Of a DNA stretch of 32,000 nt, positions 4,060 through 14,174 are shown piece after piece. The notes beneath the pieces were generated by a model. That model was not told the origin of the DNA, did not search any database, and saw only the letters and a list, made by a program, of their open reading frames with translations. The stretch spans positions 90,001-122,000 of the forward strand of contig NC_009932.1 in NCBI RefSeq assembly GCF_000018105.1. The letters are read 5' to 3'. Numbering within the stretch: the stretch's first letter is position 1; each line of letters opens with the position of its first letter. The DNA is from Acaryochloris marina MBIC11017 (GTDB taxonomy: Bacteria > Cyanobacteriota > Cyanobacteriia > Thermosynechococcales > Thermosynechococcaceae). The position numbers were made by a program, and so were the translations under genes.

Positions 4060-7000
4060 TTAATACGACTGCCCAATATCAAAATTGATTTGCTCACTCT
4101 GTAATGGCGTGGGCTTTTCTTTGACAATCTGCAACTTGACCCGATTCTGCACCATCTCAGGCATCCGCTGATTGAAGTTAATCGGCTTATCTGAGTCCAT
4201 TAGCTCCTCATAGATGGGTGAGACTTTGTGAATCGCCAATAAATACAGCCGTTTCTGTTCTGGGGTGGCCGCCCGCATATGATCTGACTCTGAGATGAAC
4301 CGATAAGCATCATTGAGTTCCGTATGTTCCTTACAGTAGGCGTAAACCTCCAGGTCAACCCGCTCCTTGGGCATCTCACCTAAGCGTTTCTGGACCCGCT
4401 TGGCAATAGAGTTGTACTGGCCTTTGTAATGACGCTTGACTTCAGCATCTGGGGAAATTGCATTAGCAATGGCGGCATTGTAATAGCGTGGTCCCACCTT
4501 AGCGATCACATCATCCAACCCCTTGCCTAACTTCGGATTCCACGGTGCCAGTTTGCAGACGACCCCCTCAGCTTGTAGCAGTTCAATGGTGCGGACCAAA
4601 TCACGACGCACATTGAAGATGGCCGATAGCTTAGTGTCCTGGTCAAACGCAAAGGTGATTTTTCGTCCCGGCTTAGCTAATGCTTTGCCATATTCCGATA
4701 ACTCTCGCTGGGGTAGGCGATGGTCGAAATCATCTTTGGCTCGATACAAAGCGGTGACCCCCGGTAATCCTACCGTTAGATGTCCCTGACTGAGGGATGC
4801 CCAGGTTTTTTTGAGTCCTTCCGTCAACACAATGGGTAGGTTGTACTGATCGGCCACATACCAAACCCCCTTGGCCCGCTCCTCTGGAGTCGGACTGATG
4901 GCATTACGCTGATAGATCAGCTCTGTAATTTCATCCGGGATATGGGGCAAGAATACCTGCTGGTCAACGCCTTTGGGTGTCTCGTATTTCACTTCCTCAC
5001 CATCAAAGATTCGGGGCGTCTTCGGCTTTACCTGGCAATAGGAAGACGGTTGTGGGTTCCCCTCGATGACGGAGAGTAAATCAGTCCCCCCATAGCCAAT
5101 CCATCCCCCTCCCTCAGCAATACGGGTATAGGCGCGTTCAGGATCATCGACCCATTTGCCATTAACCTTGTGAGTGCCATTGAGCTTTCGCTTCATCTCG
5201 TGGGTGACTTCTTGGCCTGCCCCATATTTCGGTTTGGTAAACTCAGCTCCGAGTAACGCCTCTAGCAAAACGTTGTCTCGGATTGATGGTTCAGAACTCC
5301 CTGCCTCACTTCTCAGATGCTCTGGGGTTAACAAGCTGGGATGAATGCCACTGCTCTTCATCTCGGCCCAGGTGTCCATGTCAAGCTGCCAAGGTTTCTC
5401 CACTCCCGTATAGTCAGGGGTCCAACCTTCATGGGGGTCGAATAGGGTCTCAATCGCATTCTCTTGGGCGTTGGAGGTGGCGACCCACTCTTTCAAGTCT
5501 TCTAGAGATTCTGTAAATACAGAGATATGTTTGGTCCGATGGCGCGAAATACCGACATAGAAAGACTCCCTAGCAGAAGTGGGATTGAGACTGGCAATGT
5601 AGATCGTCTCGGAATTGGTCCCGCCTTGTGCCCGGTAGGTCGTCGTGGCCCAATCATGGTCAATTTGCTGGGGCTTACTGAGATCGAGCTGATGCACTTG
5701 GCCTTTGTTGCCTTGAACCGTAGCAATCCCCTCTTGAATACGGATGCACTCTAAATAGGCATGGGTATAGATCCCTTCCTTTTTATTCGTTGAAGTGAAT
5801 CTGAGCTTATCTCCTACGGCAATATGATTTTGCTTTGCAGTGAAGACTTCAGTTCTTTCATGTTGAGCGGGATTAATCTTGAATTGCCTGCCCCCTGGTG
5901 ACGTAACTCGTAGATGTTGACCTTCAACTGCCAAGACTTTGTAAGGGACATGGGTTTGCAGTTGGGTATAGGTGCGGTGCTTACGATGGAGGACGAGTAA
6001 ATCGCCTTTGCGGTAGTTCTCCGCTCGTTTCTTCTGGACCTTCGTGAGATTGCGATTCTTGAGCTGTGTGAATTCAGTGTTGTTGGTCAGCTTCCCTTCT
6101 TCGATCAGTCGAACTCTGAGTTGATCCGTGAAGGCTTCTCTCTCGGCATTGGTCCCGATCACCACTAAGGTTTTATCTCGTCGGCTTTGGGGTAATGAAA
6201 TGTACTGCTTGACTGCCGCTGAGATTTTAGTGTCAGCATCTTCGACCTCATGGATATGCCCCTGTTTTTCGAGGACATTGAGCGCTTCAATGCCATGTCC
6301 TTCAGCGATGAGCTTTACTGCCGTTTTCTGTTCCTTGTTTTGTTGTCTGATGATTTCACTGAGCTTATGGACAGTGGCCCCGCTATGCATGAGCATTCGG
6401 ACGGGTGCGCCTGCGGCGATGGCTCCATTCTGTCCAGTATCTCCAACAGCCCAGACCCGAGCGCCCACTTTGGTTGCTTTATTCATGACCATCTCAAAGT
6501 CATCAGAGCCAACCATGCCTGATTCATCGAGTATCCAGAGTTGGTTGGATTCCGTCGTGGGTTCACTGACGGCCAGTTGAGCGATAGTTGCGCCTTCCAG
6601 GTCAAAGGATTCAGCAATCTCGTTCTTGGCATTGTGGGTGGCCGCAAAGACTTTGATGACGGTTTCAGGGGGGAGCTGCTGTCGTGCAATTCCTAATGCT
6701 GTGGTCTTGCCCGTACCTGCGAGTCCTTTAAGGATTTGGTACTGATCTGGTGAGCTGAGCAATCGCTTCATCGCTTCAGACTGACCACTATTGAGGATGG
6801 TATGGCTGAAGTCAGCGATAGGATTGAGGGGAGTAACGCTATTATTGCCCTTGAGCCAGTGGTTGATGATGCGGATATCTCGATCCACTGCGGTCTGGGT
6901 GGTGTATCGACCATCCCAGGCAGTAAGTAGATCTGGGTGGTGATCAATCTCCTGGTTTAGGGGCTTTTCATCAAAGCTGCGGAGGTGAGAAAAGACGAAG

Positions 7001-7989
7001 CGCTGAATGTCTTCAAGGCTAAAGCTGGACTGGCGTTCTGCTAGATGGCCGATAGCAGCGTCAAGTAATTCTCTGGGTGTTTCAGTGCTTTTTGGGGTGA
7101 TCGGGTGGTTGGCGGGAGTGAGACCCGTGAAGCCAACTGCTTCCATCTCATGGCCCCATCGCTCCTGCTTCTGTTCTAGACTTTCCGTGATGTTCTTAGC
7201 GATTCGGGTTTCAAAGACGGCTTTCTGTCTGTTCGCTGGAGTATTGCTCCAGCCCTTCTCTTTGAGATAGTCTTCGATTTCCGTAGAGCGCTTACTAAAT
7301 ACTTCAATCTGCTCATCCGTTACACCTGCTAAATCAAACCCCGTGGCCGTCTCCCGGATTTCATAGCCCAATGCTTGGACTTTAAGGGCTAGTTTCTGGT
7401 GGTAGAGGTCACCGAGGACGCCACTATTGCGGAGGGGTTCGTACCATAAGGCCCGATACTCTCCGTCTGGACAGAGAGTGCCATTAAACAGCACAACATG
7501 GGTATGGACATGGGGGTCACCTGCCCTGGATTCATGGTGATTAACCAGAGTGGCAGCGATGTTACCCGTTTTGATGGCTTGGCGCTTTCCATTGGCCTGG
7601 ACTCGTGCCCCGGCATATCGGTTCTCAACAATCACCATCACTTCTTTGACGGCTTCCACATGAGCCTCCCAAAGGCGCTTGTCTCCGTTGGGTCCATGGA
7701 TTGCCATACTCAAAGACTTTCCAGGAACGGTGAATGTGAGGTCATAGGCTAAGCGTTCTTTGCCTTTACCATTGACTTCGCCCCTCATGCGTTGGCCGTT
7801 GGGGAGATCACCGTAGAACATCTTTGTGAAGCGTTCAGCGGAATAAGGTTCATTGGGTGCCATGCTGCCGAACCATTCTGATTCCGTCATTTCTTGAACT
7901 TCTTCATCCTGGCTGTAGTAGCTTTCCTCTTTGGTGTAGTAGCGGGCACCGTCTTTGATGTTGGAGTTGATGGTGGTGATGTCTAGCAT
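4060..7989 (-). CDS. conjugative relaxase, MOBF/TrwC-TraI type, fused to a RecD/TraA-like helicase and a C-terminal Toprim-like (DUF3854-like) domain
   Basis: The N-terminus has paired Tyr motifs (GARYYTKEESYYSQ...EWFG) and the His-triad HHESRAGDPHVHTHVVLFNG. Walker A is GLAGTGKTT and Walker B-like is LWILDESGMV. The C-terminal part has LTEGLKK ... ITFAFDQDT (Toprim Glu and DxD). Confidence 0.93.
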   Translation of the reverse strand: MLDITTINSNIKDGARYYTKEESYYSQDEEVQEMTESEWFGSMAPNEPYSAERFTKMFYGDLPNGQRMRGEVNGKGKERLAYDLTFTVPGKSLSMAIHGPNGDKRLWEAHVEAVKEVMVIVENRYAGARVQANGKRQAIKTGNIAATLVNHHESRAGDPHVHTHVVLFNGTLCPDGEYRALWYEPLRNSGVLGDLYHQKLALKVQALGYEIRETATGFDLAGVTDEQIEVFSKRSTEIEDYLKEKGWSNTPANRQKAVFETRIAKNITESLEQKQERWGHEMEAVGFTGLTPANHPITPKSTETPRELLDAAIGHLAERQSSFSLEDIQRFVFSHLRSFDEKPLNQEIDHHPDLLTAWDGRYTTQTAVDRDIRIINHWLKGNNSVTPLNPIADFSHTILNSGQSEAMKRLLSSPDQYQILKGLAGTGKTTALGIARQQLPPETVIKVFAATHNAKNEIAESFDLEGATIAQLAVSEPTTESNQLWILDESGMVGSDDFEMVMNKATKVGARVWAVGDTGQNGAIAAGAPVRMLMHSGATVHKLSEIIRQQNKEQKTAVKLIAEGHGIEALNVLEKQGHIHEVEDADTKISAAVKQYISLPQSRRDKTLVVIGTNAEREAFTDQLRVRLIEEGKLTNNTEFTQLKNRNLTKVQKKRAENYRKGDLLVLHRKHRTYTQLQTHVPYKVLAVEGQHLRVTSPGGRQFKINPAQHERTEVFTAKQNHIAVGDKLRFTSTNKKEGIYTHAYLECIRIQEGIATVQGNKGQVHQLDLSKPQQIDHDWATTTYRAQGGTNSETIYIASLNPTSARESFYVGISRHRTKHISVFTESLEDLKEWVATSNAQENAIETLFDPHEGWTPDYTGVEKPWQLDMDTWAEMKSSGIHPSLLTPEHLRSEAGSSEPSIRDNVLLEALLGAEFTKPKYGAGQEVTHEMKRKLNGTHKVNGKWVDDPERAYTRIAEGGGWIGYGGTDLLSVIEGNPQPSSYCQVKPKTPRIFDGEEVKYETPKGVDQQVFLPHIPDEITELIYQRNAISPTPEERAKGVWYVADQYNLPIVLTEGLKKTWASLSQGHLTVGLPGVTALYRAKDDFDHRLPQRELSEYGKALAKPGRKITFAFDQDTKLSAIFNVRRDLVRTIELLQAEGVVCKLAPWNPKLGKGLDDVIAKVGPRYYNAAIANAISPDAEVKRHYKGQYNSIAKRVQKRLGEMPKERVDLEVYAYCKEHTELNDAYRFISESDHMRAATPEQKRLYLLAIHKVSPIYEELMDSDKPINFNQRMPEMVQNRVKLQIVKEKPTPLQSEQINFDIGQSY

Positions 7990-8189
7990 TACCCTATTCC
8001 CAGAAATGGAGGTTCCGAGTAGAGGATAGGCAGATTGTTATGTGAGGGCCAAATGCTTGGAAGACATACAATCAACGACTAGCCAGATTGAGTAGTTCGT
8101 CTTTTTGACGAGAGCTATCAGCCCATCCAAGAAGATATTGGCTTAGGGTTATGCTGGTCGATAATGGAAATTTCTTTGGCTGAAAATCG

Positions 8190-10454
8190 ATGGTTTGTTG
8201 TCTCAACCCAGATTGTGAGAAGCCCCTGAATCAAGACTCGTCCAAGTTTTGTCAGTCTTGTGGCACGGAGCTAATACCATTACTTCGCCATCGATTCAAA
8301 ATCATCAAGCCGCTGGGTCGTGGAGGATTTGGGAAAACCTACTTAGCAGAAGATGCAGATAAGTTAAACGAAAAATGTGTGGTCAAACAGCTTGTATATC
8401 AAGCGCAAGGCTCCCATGCCAATAAGTTAGTGGTTGAGCTGTTTATGCGGGAAGCAGAACAGTTACAGCAGTTGTGGGAAAACCCTCAAATCCCCTCCTT
8501 ATTTGCTTATTTTGAGGAAGGAGGTTATTTATACCTTGTCCAGCAGTATGTAAAAGGTCAAGACCTTCTCAAGGAATTAAAAGAGCAAGGATGTTTCGAC
8601 GATCAAAAGATCCTTGCCTTATTGAAGGATCTACTACCTGTGTTTTCGGCGATTCACAGTCGCAAAGTGATTCACCGAGATATCAAGCCTGAGAACATCA
8701 TGCGCCGAGAGAATGATGGCAGGCTGATTCTGATTGATTTTGGGGTATCCAAACAACTCTCCAAGTCTATTGTGTCGATGGCCGGGACAATGGTGGGTTC
8801 TTTGGGCTATGCTGCCCCAGAACAGATGGAATCTGGCATTGCCCAACCTAATAGTGACTTATACAGCTTGGGGGCAAGCTGCTTTCATTTGATGACGGGG
8901 ATTAACCCTTGGAGTTTATGGCGGAAGCAGGGTTATGGTTGGTTAGCGGAATGGCGAAAACATTTGCAACAGCCCATCTGCTCTGAATTAGGAACCGTTC
9001 TAGATAAGCTTCTTCAATTAGAAGTCGAAGACCGCTACCAAAGTGCTGACGAAGTTCTAGCAGATTTAGACGGGGCTAAGGCCCAAGCAGAGGCTGAGCA
9101 ACTGCAGCGGTATGAGGCAGAGTTTAGTAATGCTGTGCAATCTGCCTATCCTTTGGAGGCCCATGTGCGAGACGGTCTCAAACAATTTCAGCAATCCTTG
9201 GGGTTAGCTGATGCTGAAGTGGATCAGATAGAACAGCCCATTCTCAAGCAAGCCGAAGCAAAACGACAAGAAAGAATCAAACAGCAAGCAGAAGTTCAAC
9301 GTCAAGCCCAACAAAAACAACACGAGAAAAAACTTAAGCAAGAAGCAGACCAGCGAGAAGAAAAAGCTGCCATACTCTCGACAAAAAACTTAGTCTCACA
9401 AACGCCTCGTTCTACCCGTAAAACTTTGATTAGTGTGGGCTTATTTGGATTGATTGTGGTGCCATTGAGCTTATATGGATTGTCCACCATCTCTCGTGAT
9501 CCAGATCCGATCCCAACTGTCTCATCTGACTTATCAACTACCTCAATCAACTTAAAAGGCTCTATAGCTATCGATGGTTCTAGCAGTGTTTTTCCCATTT
9601 CCGAAGTAATAGCTGAAGAATTTCAGTCTGTTAATAAGGATGTCAAGATTACAGTGGGTATTTCTGGAACTGGTGGGGGTTTCAAGAAATTCTGCTCTGG
9701 TGAAACTGAAATTAGTGATGCATCTCGCCCAATTAAGCAAAGAGAAATTGCTCTATGCGCTAAGAACAACATTGAGTACATTGAACTCCCGGTTGCCTAT
9801 GATGTGTTGTCTGTCGTTGTTCATAAAGACAATGATTGGGCTGACTGTATGACTACAAATGAGTTGAAAACTGCCTGGTCAAAGAGTGCTCAAGGCAATA
9901 TCAGTAAGTGGAATCAGGTCAATCCTAATTATCCAGATGTTCCTCTAACCCTGTACGGTCCAGGTACTGACTCAGGTACGTTTGATTATTTCAACGAAGC
10001 GATCACAGGTGAGGAAGGCAGCCGAGGCGATTTCGCCACCAGTGAAGACAACAACACCATTGTTCGGGGTGTTTCTGGTGATAAGAATGCGATGGGCTAT
10101 TTGGGCTATGTCTACTATGAGGAAAATAAAGATTCTCTCAAAGCGGTACAAATCGACGACGGTGACGGATGTATCGCTCCTAGCGATGAAACTATTTCGA
10201 AAGGGACCTATTCCCCACTAGCACGACCGATGTTTATTTATGTCAGCAAGGTTGCTATAGATCGCCCTGAAGTGAAGTCTTTTATCGAGTTCTATCTGAA
10301 TCCTAAAAACAGGCAACTCGTAGCTAATGTAGGTTACATCCCATTATCTGATGAGATTTATGCCAAAGCACTAGCCCGCTTTCAGGAAGGAAAAACGGGG
10401 ACTGTTTTTCCAAATGGGAAAACAAATAACGTTGAGCTAACTGACGTTCTCTAG
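8190..10454 (+). CDS. receptor-like Ser/Thr protein kinase: 4-Cys zinc-ribbon prefix, Hanks kinase, coiled coil, one TM helix, extracytoplasmic PstS-family (PBP-like 2) phosphate-binding domain
   Basis: The prefix is CLNPDCEKP...CQSCG. Kinase motifs are [25 protein letters not shown] and APEQ. The coiled coil is Q/E/K-rich. The TM helix is [22 protein letters not shown]. The C-terminal 300 aa carry PstS-like motifs [51 protein letters not shown]. Confidence 0.9.
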
Positions 10455-10630
10455 CTACTAAACGCAAAACTTAAGGCTTTGAATTATTACTTGGCTCTGG
10501 CTCCACCTCCATTCTGGCTGACTGTTGAGCTAGACTGCTGGATTACGAAGGAAGCGATCCCCTTTGGATATTCAGCAAGATTTTTCTAGAGTGTTTGGGA
10601 TAGATTCCACCAAAGTCAACAGAAAAATCT

Positions 10631-10725
10631 TGTAGTACAAAAGTTTCAGATGCACTACAACTCTGTAGTGTAAAAGTTTCAAACGTGTGACAGTTTTGTA
10701 GTCAAAATACTGCAAACGTGCTACA
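10631..10725. repeat. three 29-bp palindrome-ended repeats at exactly 33-bp spacing (candidate centromere or operator upstream of parM)
   Basis: The units are TGTAGTACAAAAGTTTCAGATGCACTACA (10631-10659), TGTAGTGTAAAAGTTTCAAACGTGTGACA (10664-10692) and TGTAGTCAAAATACTGCAAACGTGCTACA (10697-10725). Each has a TGTAG...CTACA-type inverted end. Confidence 0.65.
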
Positions 10726-10872
10726 AAAAACTGAAGTAAAAAATCCCACTGCAAAATTATGCAGCCCCAAGTAGTGGCGAATAGGTGTATCCAGGTGGGA
10801 CTCCCCCTCAGACGTCCTTCAGCAACCTCTTGAACCCGTGCGCAGCGTGGGATTTGGCCGTTGGCGAGCAGC

Positions 10873-10912
10873 TCGACTGTAATCAACTGTATTCGACTGT
10901 AACTGACTGTAG
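10873..10912. repeat. four helically phased 10-bp iterons (ACTGTA core), candidate parC-type centromere
   Basis: The iterons are TCGACTGTAA TCAACTGTAT TCGACTGTAA CTGACTGTAG. The ACTGTA cores start at 10876, 10886, 10896 and 10906. The array lies 87 bp upstream of the parM-like start. Confidence 0.65.
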
Positions 10913-10937
10913 AAAACCGTAAAAAAACCGGGTTTTT

Positions 10938-11001
10938 GGTTTGCACCTCAGAGGTCATTCTGCCTACGTTTCTTGGGTAGGTCTCAGAGGACAAAAAAAT
11001 G
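10938..11001 (+). promoter_or_regulatory. conserved leader/operator-like block upstream of parM-like gene (copy 2 of 836..899)
   Basis: It sits at the same distance from the ATG as copy 1. It contains the inverted repeat CCTAC-N9-GTAGG (10963-10981) and possible -35/-10 hexamers TTGCAC / TACGTT. Confidence 0.5.
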
Positions 11002-12054
11002 GTTTACACCTTGACCGTTGCCGCTGACATGGGCTCAAGTTTGGGCAAGGGTTGCTACACGATTGATAAAGGGCCACCGAACGATGCCGAGGGATTCGTG
11101 GGCGGATTCCAGCGGGACACTCCTCGCAAAGGCTGGATTACTCAAGCCAATGCCGTTGACGAGGAAAAGCACCGGGACTTAACCCCAGATAGTTGCACCA
11201 TTGAAGTCAGAGGTAAAGCGTGGACCGTGGGTGAATCAGCCCGATACGCCCTCCATGAAACTCGTGTCAGAGCAGCCAAATCTAACACCGCATCCATCCG
11301 GGTCTTAGGAATGCTCGGCAAGATTATTGAACAAGAAGACTTCACTGAGGGCAGTTTGGATCTGCGGGTGTTGCTGCCCGTGGGCGAAAGGAAAACATTT
11401 AAGCAACTCGAAGCCAACCTGACGAAAGCCCTCTATGAAGTCAGACTCAATGGCGTTAAACCCAGCTTGCGGATTAATCGAGTGCGGGTTTATCCAGAAG
11501 GGGCGGGGGTTGCTCAACGGGTCACCGTCCCTGATGCCCTGGTGCTGATGTTTGGTCATAAAGACATCTCCATCGTGCCCGTGAGGAATCAAGTGATTCA
11601 AGCTCATGCCTGTCAGACCATTACGGGTATGGGCATGATTGCCCTGATTAATGAGTTTCCCTGCTACATCAATGATGAATTGCTTTTAGCTGAGTTCTTA
11701 CACTTAGAAGCCGTGGGCAAGGGGGGACTCAAGCGGCTCGTGGGTGAAGACAGCCTAGAGAAAGCTCGCATGAACTTTGAGCAGGCCAAGAAACGGACTT
11801 GGCGACGCATCCTGCAACAACTCATGCTAGAACCCAAGGTCAACACCGTGTCCAAAATCTATGTGACGGGTGGCTCGATGCGAGTCTGGTTGCCAGAGCT
11901 AAAAGCAATCTTTGGGGGTCGTCTAGCCTTTTTTGCTGACTCTTTGAAGTCGATGATTGCCGCCTATCCCGATATGCAAGAACCCAAGAACAAGGAAATC
12001 AAACCCCGGTTCACCGATTCATTCTTGCTGATGGAGGGTGCAACCCATGGGTAG
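10999..12054 (+). CDS. parM: ParM/StbA-like actin-fold plasmid segregation ATPase
   Basis: Actin-fold motifs are present: AADMGSSLGKG (phosphate-1, DxGxxxxK), VYPEGAGVAQ, and IYVTGGSMRVW (adenosine/GGG-like). The size is 351 aa. Iterons lie upstream and a small overlapping gene lies downstream. Confidence 0.7.
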   Translation: MVYTLTVAADMGSSLGKGCYTIDKGPPNDAEGFVGGFQRDTPRKGWITQANAVDEEKHRDLTPDSCTIEVRGKAWTVGESARYALHETRVRAAKSNTASIRVLGMLGKIIEQEDFTEGSLDLRVLLPVGERKTFKQLEANLTKALYEVRLNGVKPSLRINRVRVYPEGAGVAQRVTVPDALVLMFGHKDISIVPVRNQVIQAHACQTITGMGMIALINEFPCYINDELLLAEFLHLEAVGKGGLKRLVGEDSLEKARMNFEQAKKRTWRRILQQLMLEPKVNTVSKIYVTGGSMRVWLPELKAIFGGRLAFFADSLKSMIAAYPDMQEPKNKEIKPRFTDSFLLMEGATHG

Positions 12055-12460
12055 ACGGACAATGAAGATTCAGCTCCAGTACCCAGACCAATCCCTCAAT
12101 GGTCGGAGGTTAGAAGCCTTGCGAGGCTACTTTGGCGACAACTTGGAGCGGGTGATGATTCAAGCGATGTGGTCCGTTGTGGGGCCACTTGGATCAACCT
12201 TGGCTGACTTGCCAGAGAAAGAGGTTCAAGGTCATATCAATAGCGGCAAACTCACCATTAAAGGCTTTCACCAAGAAGCCTTGGACATGATCGGGGGTGG
12301 GGGAGTTACTCCTGAAGTGACCCCAGAGGTAACTGAAAAAGTGCCCCCAGCAGTTACCTCTGAAGTGACCCAGGAACAACCACCGTCTGCTGCCCAGGAA
12401 TCCGTTTATTCAGCATCTCCCCCAGAACAAAGCGGCGATCCACTGAACAATTTATTCTGA
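12038..12460 (+). CDS. candidate ParR-like centromere-binding adaptor (RHH-like N-terminus, repetitive P/E/V/T linker)
   Basis: It overlaps the parM-like stop by 17 nt; alternative starts are at 12047 and 12062. The N-terminus KIQLQYP..RRLEALRGYFGDNLERVMIQAMW fits a strand-helix-helix layout. The linker reads GGGGVTPEVTPEVTEKVPPAVTSEVTQE. The call rests mainly on position. Confidence 0.45.
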   Translation: MQPMGRRTMKIQLQYPDQSLNGRRLEALRGYFGDNLERVMIQAMWSVVGPLGSTLADLPEKEVQGHINSGKLTIKGFHQEALDMIGGGGVTPEVTPEVTEKVPPAVTSEVTQEQPPSAAQESVYSASPPEQSGDPLNNLF

Positions 12461-13597: not shown

Positions 13598-13622
13598 GTC
13601 TTTCAACTTTTCAAAATCTCTA

Positions 13623-13786
13623 TGGATTTTGTGTTACCTATCTGATTCCCCACCTATCTACTCAATACCAATGCTCTAACTTTTCATTTTCTTTGTGGAT
13701 TTTGTATTACCTATCTGATTCCCCACCTATCTACTCAATACCAATGCTCTAACTTTTCATTTTCTTTGTGGATTTTGTATTACCTA
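13623..13786 (+). repeat. 73-bp tandem direct repeat, 2.25 copies
   Basis: The unit is TGGATTTTGT[G/A]TTACCTATCTGATTCCCCACCTATCTACTCAATACCAATGCTCTAACTTTTCATTTTCTTTG. Units start at 13623, 13696 and 13769. Copies 1 and 2 differ at one visible position, and the third copy is truncated at about 13786. Confidence 0.9.
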
Positions 13787-13803: not shown

Positions 13804-13890
13804 ATGAAAGTAACTCTAGACCAACCAGAACAAGAACTTGAAACCATCGCCCGAATGCTGACGGAAAACTACATTATGGAGGTTATCTAA
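13804..13890 (+). CDS. micro-ORF, 28 aa, acidic (MKVTLDQPEQELETIARMLTENYIMEVI)
   Basis: Hand translation. GGGA lies about 9 nt upstream. Its stop overlaps the start of the next micro-ORF (TAATG). Confidence 0.35.
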   Translation: MKVTLDQPEQELETIARMLTENYIMEVI

Positions 13891-14000
13891 TGAAAGGCCG
13901 TCTGATTGTTCTTCTGATCCTGATTACCCCCTTACTGATCCTCGCAGGCTCCATTGGTTGGGTCTTAGGGATTAGTGCCTGGATTTTGATACTGAAGTGA
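13890..14000 (+). CDS. micro-ORF, 36 aa, single-TM hydrophobic peptide (MKGRLIVLLILITPLLILAGSIGWVLGISAWILILK)
   Basis: Hand translation. Its ATG overlaps the TAA of the upstream micro-ORF. It has a basic N-terminus, a 30-residue hydrophobic core and a terminal Lys. Confidence 0.4.
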   Translation: MKGRLIVLLILITPLLILAGSIGWVLGISAWILILK

Positions 14001-14058
14001 GGTACTCCCATTCCCTCAGCGACCAAGCCACTTGATCAGGGTTGAAGGCACCCTAGCA

Positions 14059-14174
14059 TTTCATTTTCCAGGCAGATTCTGTATTGCCTAGATGTGATGA
14101 CATACGGTTGGTCGCAGACCATCGCAACTCCAATACCCATCTCCAATACCAACCTCCAGACTTCACACCTAACC
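14059..14174 (+). repeat. intergenic cassette copy D (box 2 first, then duplicated CCAATACC arm, then a box 1-like sequence)
   Basis: TTTCATTTTCCAGGCAGATTCTGTATTGCCTA lies at 14059-14090. ATCGCAACTCCAATACCC and ATCTCCAATACCAACC lie at 14121-14154. CACACCTAACC lies at 14164-14174. Confidence 0.5.

Follow-up and report, generated by a model that had tools for sequence, protein, structure and literature searches.

The window, a stretch of 32,000 nt, belongs to a 155-kb plasmid of MOBF type (contig C8) of Acaryochloris marina, whose assembly amounts to 8.36 Mb in 10 contigs; every plasmid that matched this region was from Acaryochloris. Two small ORFs lie side by side on its forward strand. ORF1 (13804..13890) encodes 28 amino acids, 6 of them acidic and 2 basic, and a longer version of 40 amino acids with a GTG start at 13768 is recorded in NCBI. 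ORF2 (13890..14000) encodes a hydrophobic membrane peptide of 36 amino acids, and the TAA of ORF1 (13888-13890) shares a base with its ATG (13890-13892) in the sequence TAATG. An earlier sequence-only reading had pointed out the pair, the overlap and the location directly after a set of 73-bp repeats, and all three were found as described, the repeats ending just upstream of ORF1. The Shine-Dalgarno sequence of ORF2, GGAGG at 13878..13882 on the same strand, stands 7 nt before the ATG and forms a duplex of -10.5 kcal/mol as compared to a plasmid median of -3.9, and the predicted opening energy at the start is 8.1 kcal/mol, the plasmid median being 8.8. ORFs of this kind (25-55 codons, ATG start, GGAG before the start, strongly hydrophobic product) occur once in the window and in 0 of 100 dinucleotide resamplings.

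The surroundings are those of a conjugative plasmid. The gene for a MOBF (TrwC) relaxase-helicase (4060..7989, reverse strand; Pfam TrwC E=1.2e-72) is transcribed away from the side where a ParM/StbA-like actin gene and an overlapping small partner gene are found (10999..12460, forward strand; Pfam ALP_N E=1.2e-7, orthologues annotated ParM/StbA). The ParM-like gene points away from the relaxase, is followed by small genes separated by boxes, and together with its partner heads the region that holds the peptide cassette. The left border of the cassette is a box of tandem 73-bp units (13603..13786, forward strand) with cores at 13624, 13697 and 13770, and the right border is a degenerate copy of the box on the same strand (14053..14090). 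From this gene geometry the cassette is presumed to lie within the leading region; a search for oriT motifs gave nothing convincing. The cargo gene in the slot between relaxase and parM (7990-10998) changes from plasmid to plasmid, being a kinase-PstS fusion in the window and an FGE, TPR, pentapeptide or GNAT gene elsewhere. In pREC1 (L048 1-3940) the genes of a diversity-generating retroelement (RT, Avd and an FGE-type target) were observed just upstream of parM.

ORF2 is a member of a family of 20 full-length copies and one fragment, all from Acaryochloris: six copies and the fragment come from this genome, nine copies from three more Acaryochloris genomes of GTDB and five from additional plasmid records. 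The homology between the copies extends from about 30 nt upstream of the ATG to the stop codon, which makes -30 to +108 the travelling unit. In the coding frame the pN/pS of the family is 0.14-0.24, as compared to 0.34-11 in the other five frames, and the ORF statistics together with the purifying selection across the 20 copies put ORF2 beyond chance. It is a real gene, mostly unannotated and restricted to Acaryochloris, and the small membrane peptide that had been proposed for this conjugative plasmid is genuine and has a conserved frame. No homologue outside Acaryochloris was found among 1.84 billion representatives (2 matches, both family members), in 47 family genomes (one partial match, E=0.027, was rejected) or in the plasmid collection, and scanning genome and metagenome contigs for sequence patterns gave no outside relative either, a weak result as these scans also missed known copies. 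All evolutionary comparisons given here are between extant sequences.

The peptides of the family have GRAVY values of 1.9-2.2. ORF2 had been described as a single uninterrupted helix, which does not agree with the Pro14 and the G-P-I-G-W turn of the family, nor with the AlphaFold model, where helices 2-19 and 21-35 are separated by a break at Gly20 (pLDDT 83). Going by this model the peptide is a kinked helix or a hairpin, nearly without a soluble part. Its only cysteine, residue 4, is nearly invariant in the family; a VirB7-like lipobox is absent, as the residue after L-A-G is Pro, or Ser in the window, and the sole Cys is at residue 4. Foldseek returned nothing for the peptide, the best Atlas match being 0.77. 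A likeness to one transmembrane helix of VirB10 (T-P-F) was discarded, being equalled by 2.7% of unrelated hydrophobic segments and missing in other subtypes. In six of the copies described next as class I (L035, L026, L029, L030, L032 and L071) the stop codon is replaced by a polar C-terminal extension of 6-10 residues, D-S-G...N-D/N-Q.

In thirteen of the 20 copies (class I) the peptide gene closes a conjugation operon of the cyanobacterial MPF_C type and overlaps or abuts the stop codon of virB10. All 13 VirB10 genes of this clade (10 of them in GTDB genomes and 3 in Moss Beach plasmids) carry the peptide directly 3', and one class I peptide is recorded as RefSeq WP_255801511.1. The 480-aa gene before the peptide is TrbI/VirB10-like (Atlas 0.94; hhalign E=1.4e-4 to annotated VirB10), the VirB4-like ATPase of the operon has 123 cyanobacterial plasmid matches, and downstream lie genes for a wall hydrolase and for a coupling protein, VirD4, so that the operon matches the MPF_C class (PMC4027160). 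In 8 of the 13 copies the peptide is followed by a hairpin and a T-run. The class I start sites are predicted to be more folded, mostly with opening energies of 10-18 kcal/mol, as expected for a true coupling to virB10, and the starts of the remaining, class II copies are strong and predicted to be open. Since class I has the greater diversity and contains the most divergent copy, we infer that this context is the ancestral one.

Other MPF_C operons, which we reached via VirB4, have no peptide after virB10: it is absent in C3, C5-C9 and pREC4 and in the Leptolyngbya and Nostoc operons examined, and the window plasmid's own operon about 32 kb away is among those without it. This means that the peptide is not a universal MPF_C subunit, and judging from its distribution over the operons, it is probably not one of the profiles shared by all of MPF_C. 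The VirB10 query had no match outside Acaryochloris in the phylum samples. Between T4SSs whose VirB4, VirB6 and VirB8 share 28-48% identity (VirB6 28-36%) the peptide is 89-97% identical, which implies either lateral exchange or a conserved target. Comparing L072, the operon of C2, with L043, the C-terminus of VirB10, the peptide and the wall hydrolase are 78-92% identical and VirB4, VirB6 and VirB8 about 30%, a pattern that points to a recombination joint inside virB10.

The other seven copies (class II: the window, C1, C3, C5, S15, pREC1 and pMB04) form one clade with a bootstrap of 74. They are located downstream of a parM locus, with the relaxase, where in view, on the opposite side, and their host plasmids carry other T4SS subtypes than those of class I. 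In the sister plasmids C9, pMB06 and pREC4 the same box precedes different genes, which identifies an exchangeable cassette, and the cassette arrays neighbour ParM, ArdC-like and TA genes. The relocated copies are still under purifying selection, with a pN/pS of 0.14 (0.149 in class I) and, the window allele left aside, 16 synonymous changes against 1 non-synonymous (p=1e-8). Strain MBIC10699 keeps a relocated copy, and no VirB10 of the class I clade is found in its plasmid records. The arrangement resembles that of the CUP-controlled cassettes in IncN leading regions, small genes swapped behind a repeated upstream box beside relaxase and stb/par; the sequences are, however, unrelated, and any repressor or promoter activity at the box here would be putative. 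The chromosome carries a copy of this plasmid region beside IS21 (G000:C1 6234306-6241076), whose mosaic identity (blocks of 99% and of 86-93%) suggests repeated conversion between plasmid and chromosome. A 5'-truncated peptide fragment with the 3' flank of an L037-type operon was also observed on the window's own plasmid (L036; G000:C8 35680-35748).

ORF1 is a by-product, mostly a leftover of the relocation. Its last 30 nt (13860..13889, forward strand) have a mean identity of 59% to the 30 nt before the class I start, as compared to 33% for shuffled sequences, with background identity beyond -30, and its tail ENYIMEVI can be compared with the VirB10 end EIYFVEGV. ORF1 is composed of about 18 codons limited to these cassettes, a front part that has no homologue outside them, and the last ~10 codons of virB10, a 3' tail that was carried along with the peptide gene and bears the Shine-Dalgarno sequence of ORF2. 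Its pN/pS is 0.66, the changes are spread evenly over the codon positions (9/7/10), and 8 synonymous against 17 non-synonymous changes are not below neutral (p=0.2). In C3 there is a stop at codon 7, in pREC1 TTG replaces ATG and in C5 the ORF is missing, and all three have the same intact peptide. The frame conservation that had been proposed as a check for both ORFs was accordingly seen for ORF2 (pN/pS about 0.14) and failed for ORF1, which has no significant constraint at the protein level. Coupling to ORF1 thus appears dispensable for ORF2, although some coupling may occur.

The copy in the window differs from the rest of its family. Its private changes, C4R at 13899, P21S at 13950, I29S at 13975 and L34I, fall on near-invariant sites and comprise 4 residues and 5 bases with no silent change, as compared to 0 non-synonymous and 8 silent changes in the five sisters (Fisher p about 0.001-0.003). 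Two metagenome contigs keep the family residues at the first three of these sites (4, 21 and 29). The chromosomal copy in C1 is the same allele as in the window, an identity that we regard as uninformative because the homology there is mosaic. Relaxed selection is the simplest reading of the window allele, which may be a decaying copy, and an altered specificity is possible. It is conceivable that the window copy alone is an untranslated or functionless passenger while the family is functional elsewhere, and we give this slightly less than an even chance. The exclusively non-synonymous changes, the family residues retained in the metagenome contigs and the 5'-truncated fragment on the same plasmid all favour it. 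On the other hand, the start, stop, Shine-Dalgarno sequence and hydrophobicity are intact, an identical allele sits in the chromosome, though recent conversion may explain this, and a branch with only non-synonymous changes also fits a change of specificity. A passenger in the window is compatible with a role of the family in mating control.

Such a role is the explanation that we prefer, and our confidence in it is evenly balanced: the peptide may be a small inner-membrane accessory of Acaryochloris conjugative plasmids that controls mating in an exclusion- or immunity-like manner. Its probable ancestral place is the end of one MPF_C operon clade, where it is coupled to virB10 and in most cases has a terminator behind it. 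In other plasmids about 140 nt, the virB10 tail with the Shine-Dalgarno sequence plus the ORF, were moved to a position behind the repeat box, on the side of the relaxase where ParM is encoded, and this created the 28-codon ORF1. With almost no soluble part, the peptide would have to work through contacts between its helices and those of a membrane protein. Donors would make it together with the transfer operon, and the relocated copies would be expressed early in new recipients. Usefulness both in the donor and in the fresh recipient fits best with exclusion or with membrane protection during mating, and the job of the peptide in a plasmid-carrying cell would be to block redundant entry or to limit the membrane damage caused by mating or the T4SS. 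The idea builds on a peptide that is dispensable for MPF_C systems generally, nearly identical across T4SSs and under selection after leaving the operon. Its linkage to VirB10 in 13 of 13 cases, within a transfer operon, and its retention in MBIC10699, where the VirB10 of class I was not found, also speak for mating control.

Each classical Eex protein is specific to its own cognate TraG/VirB6, and in the known ones this specificity is carried by a soluble region. The peptide has no such region and does not co-vary with VirB6, being 89-97% identical between subtypes that share 28-36% in VirB6. The many coexisting replicons that bear it, 5 plasmids and the chromosome here and 5 class I operons in G001, also disfavour a strong and broad exclusion. 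It resembles the Eex proteins (TraS of F, TrbK of RP4 and pKPC_UVA01, Eex of SXT/IncC) in being a small membrane protein encoded in a transfer operon with a strong translation signal, and in being apparently dispensable for building the machine. Exclusion genes encode inner-membrane proteins in tra operons (PMC7690428), and that of pKPC_UVA01 is dispensable for transfer, dose-dependent and active across Inc groups (PMC8923210), a breadth that the peptide would share. The peptide differs in having no sequence homology to the TraS, TrbK and Eex families, only 36 aa and no soluble domain or lipobox cysteine, in its place after virB10 and not beside virB5/virB6, and in existing also as a stand-alone cassette of the leading region. 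It may work like Eex, but with the co-variation and homology tests negative we do not class it as such. A bolder version, which we find rather improbable, is that a purely intramembrane peptide of 36 residues gives broad exclusion or mating immunity across divergent T4SSs and was captured by rival plasmids against their competitors; a captured copy in the leading region would, as soon as the plasmid has entered, keep competing conjugative plasmids out or disarm them. If true, it would be a case of exclusion-gene theft, and we are aware of no earlier exclusion factor in the conjugation of cyanobacteria. According to a survey from 2014, experimental studies of conjugation systems in cyanobacteria were lacking (PMC4027160), and our literature searches brought up nothing later on this peptide. 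The reach is narrow, one genus, with a function that is inferred and a window copy that is possibly decaying; at the same time a strongly conserved small gene in two natural expression contexts offers a cheap handle on the control of entry between plasmids in Acaryochloris.

The perfect linkage and translational coupling to virB10, and the more structured class I starts that true coupling predicts, would also suit a structural or assembly role on the donor side. The peptide would then be a small subunit of this T4SS clade that stabilises the complex in the inner membrane and is made in step with VirB10, the relocated copies serving co-resident machines in trans. Ancestral copies do sit in an operon with VirB4 and VirB6-, VirB8- and VirB10-like genes, a wall hydrolase and VirD4, as in the MPF_C model pCC7120alpha (PMC4027160), but the peptide is confined to one Acaryochloris clade. 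Such a subunit seems unlikely with other MPF_C operons lacking the peptide, with a nearly invariant sequence facing putative partners of about 30% identity, and with conservation in a strain for which no VirB10 of this clade was found among the plasmid records. The extreme conservation regardless of T4SS subtype and the cassette array next to ParM, ArdC-like and TA genes would rather be in line with an establishment or anti-defence peptide that targets a conserved host membrane protein and has no direct role in mating control, and an enrichment of anti-defence and uncharacterised genes is a feature of leading regions (PMC11541004). The transfer operon, and not the leading region, is however the place of two thirds of the copies, the most divergent ones included, and we consider a host target quite unlikely.

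The interpretation favoured in the sequence-only reading was a mok/hok-like type I toxin module, a depolarising peptide with a mok-like leader, silenced by antisense RNA and active in post-segregational killing. The peptide is like the products of hok/mok/Sok, Fst/Ldr, BsrG and MsoT1 in size, hydrophobicity and basic N-terminus, it is multi-copy on plasmids, and this copy has a short upstream ORF. Other features speak against the module. A VirB10 gene of 480 aa takes the place of the upstream reader in 13 of 20 copies, and for a type I system it would be unusual to have the killer peptide coupled to a core gene of transfer. The leader is not mok-like, being unconstrained and dispensable, altered or absent in 3 of the 7 class II copies. 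The strong Shine-Dalgarno sequence of ORF2 is predicted to be open and not sequestered as in hok, and the folding of the region equals that of shuffles (z=+0.96). As the travelling unit consists of the Shine-Dalgarno sequence and the ORF, with downstream flanks at background identity, there is no room for a conserved antitoxin control, and a sequence-based look for an antisense unit yielded neither a promoter nor a terminator of consensus type, nor any match in Rfam. The peptide has no PxxxG (Fst) motif or charged tail, no toxin match in Rfam, Pfam, NCBIfam or PHROG and no homology to Hok, Fst/Ldr or other toxin families. The nearly invariant Cys4 is a point in favour of a toxin, since cysteines occur in HokB-type toxins (PMC8309996), and we leave the model a small chance because a two-helix type I toxin candidate, MsoT1, has been proposed in a cyanobacterium (PMC12390103). 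The earlier interpretation is thus partly supported: the two ORFs do not make up a pair of the mok/hok kind, and the small membrane subunit or exclusion factor that it named as a minor alternative is a better reading than the toxin.

It was also possible to observe some features of the T4SSs without the peptide. The eight large plasmids of this genome (C2-C9) each have their own divergent MPF_C operon, and three of the peptide-less subtypes have an extra multi-transmembrane gene of 157-178 aa between virB6 and virB8 (G000:C8 68026-68505, C9 98694-99167 and C3 213393-212857). The interval between virB6 and virB8 is a typical site of an entry-exclusion gene. Furthermore, a gene of 150-220 aa with a hydrophobic N-terminus before virB4 looks like a candidate for the pilin of MPF_C, which was left unidentified in the earlier survey (PMC4027160).
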